A DNA stretch of 64,000 bases from Octopus vulgaris. Its lineage: Eukaryota. This document shows, piece by piece, positions 10,855-12,992 of this stretch. Under the pieces are notes generated by a model that made no database searches, was not told where the DNA came from, and worked only from the letters and a program-made list of their open reading frames with translations. The stretch spans positions 71,486,001 to 71,550,000 of the forward strand of contig OX597816.1 in assembly GCA_951406725.2 (NCBI GenBank). Reading direction: 5' to 3'. How positions within the stretch are numbered: the stretch's first letter is position 1; each line of letters begins with the position of its first letter. The translations under genes and the position numbers were made by a program.

Positions 10855-11020
10855 AGGCTTAAAAAAGTACAAAGCTTAAAAAAAATGTACTGGGCTTTAA
10901 AAATGGTATAAAAAAGTACTGGGATTAAAAGAAGTACCAGATTTTTAAAAGTACCAGGTTTTTAAAAAAAATACTGGGCTTAAAAAAGAAGTACCAAGAT
11001 TTAAAAAAAAGTACTGGGCT
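10855..11020. repeat. tandem amplification of AAAAAAGTACTGGGCTT-like 17-22 bp units in a family A tail
   Basis: About 8 degenerate AAGTAC-containing units. Confidence 0.75.
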
Positions 11021-11097
11021 TGATTTGTTCACCTAAAATTCTTCATGGCAATGCCCCAGTACGGCCACAATCTAATGACTGAAACAAGTAAAAGGTT

Positions 11098-11604
11098 CAT
11101 TATTTACTTTATTTACAGTTGACGGATATTTGTCCTCATCTTGTTTGTTGCTAATACAATATTTCGGCTGACATACTCTCCAGCCTTCTTCAGGTGTCTT
11201 GGGGAAATTTCGAACCTGGGTTCTCATTCCTAAAGTATTTTTCAATGTTATTATTATTATCGAACTTGGAATCTTGGGGTTAGTAGCCCGCACTCTTAAC
11301 CGCCATGCCATATGCCTGTGGGTGTAGTGGTTGAGAGAGTGGGCTACTAACCCCAAGATTCCAAGTTCAATTTCAAGCAATGACCTCAACAACGACGACG
11401 ACGCTGCCGCCGCCGCCACCACCTCAACCATCAAAAAATACCTTAGGGATGAGAACCCAGGTTTGAAATTTCCCCAAGACACCTGATGAAGGCTGGAGGG
11501 TGTATCAGCCAAAAACAATGTGTTAACAACAAACAAGATGAGGACAAATATCCATCTAATGTAAATAATGTACCTAATTCCTCATCTCTTAAATATAGAA
11601 CTGT
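11098..11604. mobile_element. palindromic insertion of a tRNA-headed, hammerhead-bearing short element with 12-bp TSD
   Basis: Head-to-head arms centred near 11311. TSD AAGTAAAAGGTT at 11086-11097 and 11605-11616. Each arm has a tRNA-like head, a trinucleotide tract and CTGA(T/A)GA-a-ggctg..cagcc-(G/A)AAA. Confidence 0.85.
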
Positions 11605-11818
11605 AAGTAAAAGGTTGTTCTTTATACTAGAGGCACAAGGTCTTAAATTTTGGCGGGAAGGAGCTCGTTAATTACACTGACCCACCTCCCCATACTTGAC
11701 TGGTGCTTATTTCATCTACTCTGAAAAGATGAAAGGTAAAGTTCACCTTGGCATTGTTATATGCAATGTTTTGAGTTTTCTTTTCTTATTTCTTCAGTTC
11801 ATACAAACAATCCTACAC

Positions 11819-12603: not shown

Positions 12604-12992
12604 TGGAGGCGCAATGGCCCAGTGGTTAGGGTAGCGGACTCGCGGTCGTAGGATCGCGGTTTCGATTCCCAGACCGGGCGTTGTGAGTGTTTATTGAGCG
12701 AAAACACCTAAAGCTCCATGAGGCTTCGGCAGGGATGGTGGTGATCCCTGCTGTACTCTTTCACCACAAATTTCTCTCATTCTTCCTTCCTGTTTCTGCT
12801 GTACTTGTATTTCAAAGGGCCGGCCTTGTCACTCTCTGTGTCTCGTTGAATATCCCCAAGAACTGTGTTATGGGTAGACATGTCTGTGGAGTGCTCAGCC
12901 ACTTACACGTTAATTTCACAAGCAGACTGTTCCGTTGATCGGATCAACCGGAACCCTCGTCGTCGTAACCGACGGAGTGCTTCCATCCATCC
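12604..12992 (+). mobile_element. family D-related tRNA SINE with (CCAT)n tail and 12-bp TSD
   Basis: A/B boxes TGGCCCAGTGG and GGTTTCGATTCC. TSD ATGTCTTGCATG at 12592-12603 and 12993-13004. The 3' half matches 1770-1954. Confidence 0.92.

Follow-up and report, generated by a model that had tools for sequence, protein, structure and literature searches.

Penelope-like elements (PLEs) of the EN+ Penelope/Poseidon type, represented by the anole Poseidon element PAc (PMC11167929; PMC8557442), are described as having one ORF that encodes an RT followed by a GIY-YIG domain. The ORF starts within the pseudo-LTR (pLTR) and overlaps a hammerhead there, and the pLTRs occur in tandem; insertions have an inverted truncated neighbour and lie in AT-rich targets, and two 3' ends bound a tail that lies some 120-155 nt inside the ORF. 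The octopus family reported here has all of this in common with the elements in those accounts but differs from them in that its pLTR has a tRNA-derived A/B-box head beside a sharp 5' edge and in that 5' ends in the genome also form an edge where the hammerhead is predicted to cut. The minimal type I hammerheads described for metazoan PLEs (PMC4209133) have, in common with the octopus motif, an extra nucleotide between A9 and G10.1, a G10.1-C11.1 pair, a palindromic 15.2-16.2 and no loop 3; because it has no loop 3, the octopus hammerhead is predicted to work as a dimer. The schistosome Sm-alpha and Sj-alpha SINE-like repeats (reviewed in PMC6765202) also have a Pol III-type promoter followed by a hammerhead but are described there as non-coding tandem repeats, whereas the octopus module belongs, as the pLTR, to a coding element and usually forms an inverted pair. 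Animal non-LTR retrozymes (PMC7229834; bioRxiv 10.64898/2026.07.22.740005) are likewise short hammerhead-bearing sequences related to PLE pLTRs; however, they form head-to-tail arrays of their own monomers, and the available text of the two reports mentions no tRNA head or promoter. Classification of the octopus family as a non-LTR retrozyme was rejected because inverted pairs dominate and two-unit direct joins are few. In Penelope of D. virilis the promoter and transcription start are within the pLTR, a feature in common with the octopus element, but the promoter is reported to be LINE-like and TATA-less and to overlap an intron (PMC2377424), whereas that of the octopus element is putatively tRNA-type and no intron was seen in its consensus. 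How the inverted insertions of PLEs form and what their hammerheads do in vivo are presented as open questions in the literature (PMC8557442, PMC11167929, PMC7761336). Neither a tRNA-type promoter in a PLE pLTR nor the octopus family was found in the full-text literature searched; Dfam, Repbase and the repeat library of PMC13282606 could already contain the family. The inverted form of insertion is already known, and the new features are the tRNA-derived head inside the pLTR of an autonomous PLE and two sharp 5' edges, at unit positions 2378 and 2576.

The window, a 64,000-nt stretch of Octopus vulgaris DNA, contains a palindromic insertion of this family at 11086..11616, with the following features.

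11086..11097, plus strand: left TSD copy, also the 3' end of another high-copy repeat (the target)
11099..11322, minus strand: left arm, an inverted tail-less pLTR copy, unit positions 2379-2634
11153..11198, minus strand: minimal type I hammerhead motif of the left arm, by sequence inspection; core kept, one stem I mismatch
11259..11322, minus strand: tRNA-derived head of the left arm; includes the start of the 10-nt palindrome; end of the B box deleted
11321..11322, no strand: head-to-head join with a 2-nt overlap
11321..11603, plus strand: right arm, a tail-bearing pLTR copy, unit positions 2392-2659
11321..11387, plus strand: tRNA-derived head of the right arm, with a clipped A box at 11321-11330
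11344-11350, plus strand: anticodon-like loop of the right head
11363-11374, plus strand: decayed B box of the right head
11388..11428, plus strand: trinucleotide spacer, (AAT)n in the family consensus and AAC/GAC/GCC by drift here
11449..11451, plus strand: start codon of the 835-aa ORF, inside the pLTR and upstream of the hammerhead
11478..11524, plus strand: minimal type I hammerhead motif of the right arm; CUGAUGA intact, GAAACGUU broken
11576..11604, plus strand: PLE tail, in one arm only; runs on into the ORF body in tandem copies
11605..11616, plus strand: right TSD copy

The 12-bp TSD AAGTAAAAGGTT is exact at 11086-11097 and 11605-11616, and the two inverted arms between its copies are arranged head to head, with 87% identity in the body and 91% in the common head. 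The insert folds as a single hairpin (z = -26.8). The left arm lacks the final 28-30 nt, the tail that the right arm has. A perfect TSD around head-to-head copies and a left copy short of its last ~30 bp had both been noted in a sequence-only reading of this DNA, and both hold. The join, placed earlier near 11311, was corrected to 11321-11322. The target site, window 11011-11097, is the 3' end of a separate high-copy repeat, which matches the window at 19 further places. Because the left TSD copy coincides with the natural end of this repeat, the right copy is a true duplication. Locus L052 has a TSD similar to that of the window insert.

Both heads in the window are clipped and decayed. In the right arm, the A box is one base short at its start and the B box has three changes; in the left arm a 31-nt deletion runs through the end of the B box. 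The right-arm hammerhead core is broken, GAAACGUU reading AAAAACAAU; the left-arm core is formally intact, with the conserved nucleotides retained, and the two arms differ at the diagnostic hammerhead position. ARAGORN and Rfam at default settings called no tRNA or hammerhead in the window insert, and the window arms were not scored by a tRNA covariance model at the level of better-preserved copies (18-22 bits). As for the divergent Pol III promoters proposed by the sequence-only reading, the head-to-head geometry is real, but it is a by-product of the PLE form of insertion and both heads are damaged here. An unrelated tRNA-like SINE head at window 12610-12686 gave 22.6 bits with the tRNA model.

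In L116 and L120 the PLE reading frame enters the head directly, and the unit to which the arms belong was assembled by walking outward. Its consensus of 2,659 nt (2.66 kb) has a single 835-aa ORF, RT then GIY-YIG, with no intron seen and the following landmarks.

Unit 2354: stop codon
Unit 2384-2457: tRNA-like head
Unit 2459-2488: (AAT)n spacer
Unit 2506: ATG
Unit 2540-2575: hammerhead core
Unit 2632-2659: tail

The head is 30 nt past the stop codon, and the start of the ORF is inside the arm. The RT was scored as RVT_1 (E=4e-8) on an intact stretch. A C-terminal GIY-YIG motif with CCHH residues is visible in L147 and in the consensus; Pfam left it unscored on copies from the genome itself and scored it on the homologue P0019 (E=1.1e-5). 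No extra Zn-finger (Cys-rich motif) was seen by inspection in the RT-EN linker. The 835-aa protein has 57% identity over residues 11-831 to a full-length homologue, the hammerhead-coded stretch included, and the top homologues contain PF00078, most of them with PF28514 and PF26215 as well. A 55%-identical homologue, P0008, clusters with proteins of the barnacle Amphibalanus amphitrite; the closest homologues (62-69%) are ENA sequences, and together with the P0008 cluster they hint at a patchy distribution. Homologues P0001-P0009 range from 53 to 69%. Viral contigs contained no relative.

Partial tandems that make pseudo-LTRs are present in L159, L160, L175, L212, L228 and most of the 30 ORF-start loci; those of L159, L160, L175 and L212 have the order pLTR, tail and ORF, and in tandem copies the tail passes into the ORF body. 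Among 39 head-anchored loci, the sequence continues past the spacer into the PLE body in 38 and reaches upstream into the ORF in 8, and no free-standing family of the head was found; nor was any sequence found that is specific to short copies. Since the head-anchored loci run into the PLE body or ORF, there is no separate SINE. Both window arms are pLTRs that belong to an autonomous PLE; the window palindrome is an ordinary PLE insertion. The sequence-only reading was right that the insertion depends on a Penelope element, to which the whole arm belongs, and that its 3' part comes from a PLE, the arm being a PLE pLTR; the separate non-coding tRNA SINE that it proposed is not supported, because the 3' UTR and the beginning of the ORF of the autonomous PLE make up the entire arm with its head. 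A second PLE family that could serve as a control in this genome was not found, all 30 loci examined belonging to the same family. Later insertions frequently lie in the (AAT)n spacer, which also expands or changes to different triplets (L016, L022, L324, L331, L339, L353), and three loci on one contig (L332, L333, L334; G000:C29) have an identical structure, probably through segmental duplication.

The genome searched comprises 2.8 Gb in 227 contigs. A 28-nt stretch of the tail has at least 4,040 exact matches genome-wide, and a control had 0; an exact match over 26 nt is found in only 12 of 27 ORF-anchored tails, and the number of tail ends is therefore roughly 9,000. In the first 90 loci among the 100 matches listed, an adjacent inverted arm is present in 62, a lower bound because later insertions split some of the other loci. 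Of the 61 inverted loci, 36 have a TSD of at least 8 nt, as against 1 of 27 solo loci and 8 of 600 shuffled or mismatched flank pairs, with two loci at the edge of the retrieved sequence excluded from scoring. By this count of palindromic and solo copies, which the sequence-only reading had called for, the inverted dimer with TSDs is the usual product, as that reading had supposed. Most of the 36 TSDs (31) are 11-16 nt long, and the remainder are four 8-mers and one TA repeat. The arms are ~4% off the consensus at non-CpG sites, and the targets are AT-rich (77% AT). Two fixed 3' ends were observed among 420 arms, 219 at 2657-2659 and 155 at 2624-2635, and the tail is 28-30 nt long. Exactly one tail is present in 20 of 22 head-anchored pairs, none in 2 and both in 0 (with three duplicated loci taken once, and with two pairs excluded, one as ambiguous and one as truncated). 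The insertion signature described for PLEs is an adjacent inverted truncated copy with a one-sided tail of 30-40 bp (PMC8557442; PMC8969392), and the octopus family has the inverted 5'-truncated neighbour and the tail at one end. An apparent occurrence of GC-rich spacers in tail arms was an artefact of querying with the window's own arm and was dropped.

The pLTR head is tRNA-derived and degenerate. The model, built from 13 host tRNAs, gave 18-22 bits with the heads of L101, L212 and L213, which bears out the tRNA-derived head of the sequence-only reading in better-preserved copies and not in the window arms. Among the seven main isotypes sampled, the best pairwise match of the head is to host tRNA-Arg (z about 8). 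ARAGORN did not call the head at 80% or more of its default threshold, and Rfam had no match to it, also in the better-preserved copies. An HDV-like fold was rejected by eye, with no P1.1 pairing. In 79 control PLE loci, many of which have no 3' UTR, the tRNA model gave no hit in the interval from the ORF end to the hammerhead. A second tRNA-headed PLE was considered in L241 but is unsupported by the covariance model or Rfam; in this perfect tandem PLE of another host, positions 2845-2940 have an A-box-like and a B-box-like stretch, with CCA and AAT repeats before the hammerhead, and there are 2 TTTT runs per 2.79-kb unit.

The arms end preferentially near the head. In 50-nt bins, the probability of an arm end is 0.68-0.72 for 2360-2409, compared with about 0.1 for most of the others. 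Among 193 head occurrences, 5 start at 2364-2376, 35 at 2377-2378, 94 at 2379-2395 and 59 further upstream, with a sharp edge at G2378, which is preceded by T and is 13 nt upstream of the A box. A start 13 nt before the A box is the start pattern of type-2 Pol III promoters, and the G2378 edge is likely to be a Pol III start. The putative RNA start carries a nearly self-complementary 10-mer. Its centre forms a perfect palindrome in 7 of 13 palindromic joins as compared with 4 of 54 native copies; this palindrome inflates the count at 2377 by construction. A second cluster of starts at 2384 (13 of 193) would also be compatible with hairpin trimming or an RNase P-type cut. Roughly 30% of arms extend past the edge, and of the 5' pLTRs linked to an ORF in the 30 ORF-start loci, 5 end at the edge or within 45 nt after it and 4 run upstream; read-through RNAs therefore exist. 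G2378 starts are joined to unrelated sequence in L103, L324, L351, L357, L361 and L366, and in L342 both arms end at G2378, with two complete palindromic ends butted together. In three RNA runs with the same label, the strands were covered about equally and there were no pile-ups of ends, so that the reads are uninformative on the promoter. At L234:1383-3720, RNA reads of the same label span the whole element on both strands, rise steeply toward the pLTR and include strand-switch joints in the head region.

In the consensus hammerhead, stems I and II are 5 bp each, A9 is followed by an extra base, and stem III is palindromic and has no loop; by inspection its core and stems correspond to the minimal hammerheads described in PMC4209133, in agreement with the motif named in the sequence-only reading. 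Rfam gave no hammerhead match in the window or in better copies. Compared with the hammerheads of PMC4209133, the octopus motif has the triplet GUU, its core is retained in 48 of 125 arms, and its activity is predicted. Position 7 is the sole strongly variable non-CpG site of the core. The cut is predicted after GUU, giving a product that begins with G2576, and 27 arms start at 2574-2585 as against 11.4 expected (P=6e-5), with a few duplicates among the 27 and a possible contribution from the palindrome at 2577-2584. This excess of 5' ends suggests that the hammerhead cleaves in vivo. Most arms span the cut site, so uncut RNA is the main template. For the anole element, no RNA ends at the hammerhead site are reported, and cleavage was dispensable in vitro (PMC11167929).

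We favour, with a probability of roughly 60%, a reading in which the arms are two cDNAs primed off opposite strands of one staggered cut, each ending at an RNA start that is probably set by a tRNA-derived Pol III promoter. Pol III would start at G2378 and transcribe through the hammerhead into the ORF, and part of the RNA would be cut after GUU by the dimer-type hammerhead to give the 2576 edge. A protein dimer would nick both target strands, and one cDNA would be primed at each of the two start sites from the same RNA or source element. Joining of the cDNA 3' ends through short homology, most easily the 10-mer at the RNA start, would then give a head-to-head insert with one tail. In 43 of 46 pairs, the two arms of a locus have the same nucleotide at the free hammerhead position, variants that are otherwise rare are common to both arms at 0.50% within a locus as compared with 0.15% between loci (3.4x), and joint entry of both arms into the ORF was seen in 6 of 8 cases as against 5 of 54 (P=2e-4). 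The anole Poseidon protein is reported to cut and extend both strands, with starts at the two boundaries of the tail, and a dimer is predicted for it (PMC11167929). One tail per pair and the shared source variants fit paired priming on both target strands.

A serious alternative, though one that we consider somewhat unlikely, is that a single cDNA folds back and copies itself and that an endonuclease resolves the intermediate at the tail boundary, with no second priming. Long pairs with near-equal breakpoints (1300/1302, 2184/2209, 2010/2038, 2042/2060, 1711/1711) and the variants common to both arms would be expected from such copying, and resolution of the tail by the endonuclease is proposed in PMC8557442. 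However, the longer arm varies, being the tail arm in 18 loci and the tail-less arm in 27, with the arms within 20 nt of each other in 17; L342 consists of two complete palindromic ends that abut; and the anole protein extends both strands in vitro from two start sites (PMC11167929).

It is unlikely, too, that the tRNA-like segment is carried along by the same element as a passenger in the 3' UTR of a Pol II transcript, derived from an old SINE or a tRNA pseudogene, with the edge at 2378/2384 produced by RNA processing or by an RT stop and fold-back at a GC hairpin. The head with its (AAT)n does resemble a SINE that has simply been inserted, there is a native hairpin at about 2367-2393, many copies have short fold-backs at the head edge, headless PLEs also have TTTT-free ORFs (3 of 11 long control loci), and the internal promoter of D. 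virilis Penelope is described as LINE-like and TATA-less (PMC2377424). A stall, however, would be expected near 2393, where the hairpin has its 3' base, and not in the loop, and hardly any ends lie at 2364-2376. Exact G2378 starts against unrelated sequence in several copies, the ending of both L342 arms at this position and the shape of the 2378 edge, which resembles that of the hammerhead-cut edge, also speak against a passenger, as does the absence of a free-standing head family from the 39 head-anchored loci. We regard as very improbable a distinct tRNA SINE, non-autonomous and with a 3' end borrowed from a PLE, whose own short master would give rise to the inverted dimers. In its favour, 78 of 90 tail arms stop short of the region upstream of unit 2360, centre variants rare in ORF-linked copies occur in 7 of 23 head-starting copies as compared with 4 of 54, so that the 3' pLTR of the element does not match every source copy, and two pairs of independent inserts have common pLTR-ORF(1-234)-pLTR joins. 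Against it, the head is integral to the autonomous element, the short copies have no sequence of their own, and the shared join is at only 2 genomic places within one mismatch.

These joins belong to a wider group. Jumps from ORF 199-266 back into the pLTR occur in ~11 of the 30 ORF-start loci, a pattern that suggests small circles, template jumps or a short RNA whose 3' end recurs. Independent inserts in L361 (G000:C3:3758221) and L366 (G000:C3:4756808) have ORF position 234 joined to G2378 with AA between, and L364 and L381 are also among the independent inserts that join ORF 234 to G2378 or to G2576, the predicted hammerhead product. Segmental duplication as the source of the shared 234-to-2378 joins was rejected because the flanks differ, and a high-copy master with this join was not found, the join being at two genomic places.

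The thousands of fossil products in this family carry fixed landmarks, namely two 3' start sites paired one per arm and two 5' edges, from which predictions follow directly for the in vitro PLE assay that already exists. A tRNA-type promoter in an autonomous coding element would blur the divide between SINEs and autonomous elements and suggest a route of origin for repeats that combine a tRNA with a hammerhead. For annotation, short pLTR arms are easily misfiled as SINEs or MITEs.

The sense consensus of the 2.66-kb unit contains 0 TTTT as compared with 2.8-4.7 expected (P 0.006-0.03). As proof of Pol III transcription this is weak, since GGGG is likewise absent from the unit and 3 of 11 control ORFs of at least 1.9 kb (2 families) are TTTT-free. 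In 79 PLE loci of other hosts, TTTT occurs 359 times as compared with 262 expected. It is a distinctly doubtful proposition that the whole coding RNA would be made by Pol III from a captured tRNA promoter, with the unit kept TTTT-free, and that tRNA-headed PLE-dependent repeats elsewhere would arise from such pLTRs. A PLE family of another host (L261, L264, L265) combines a TTTT-free ORF with a T-rich pLTR and no tRNA head.
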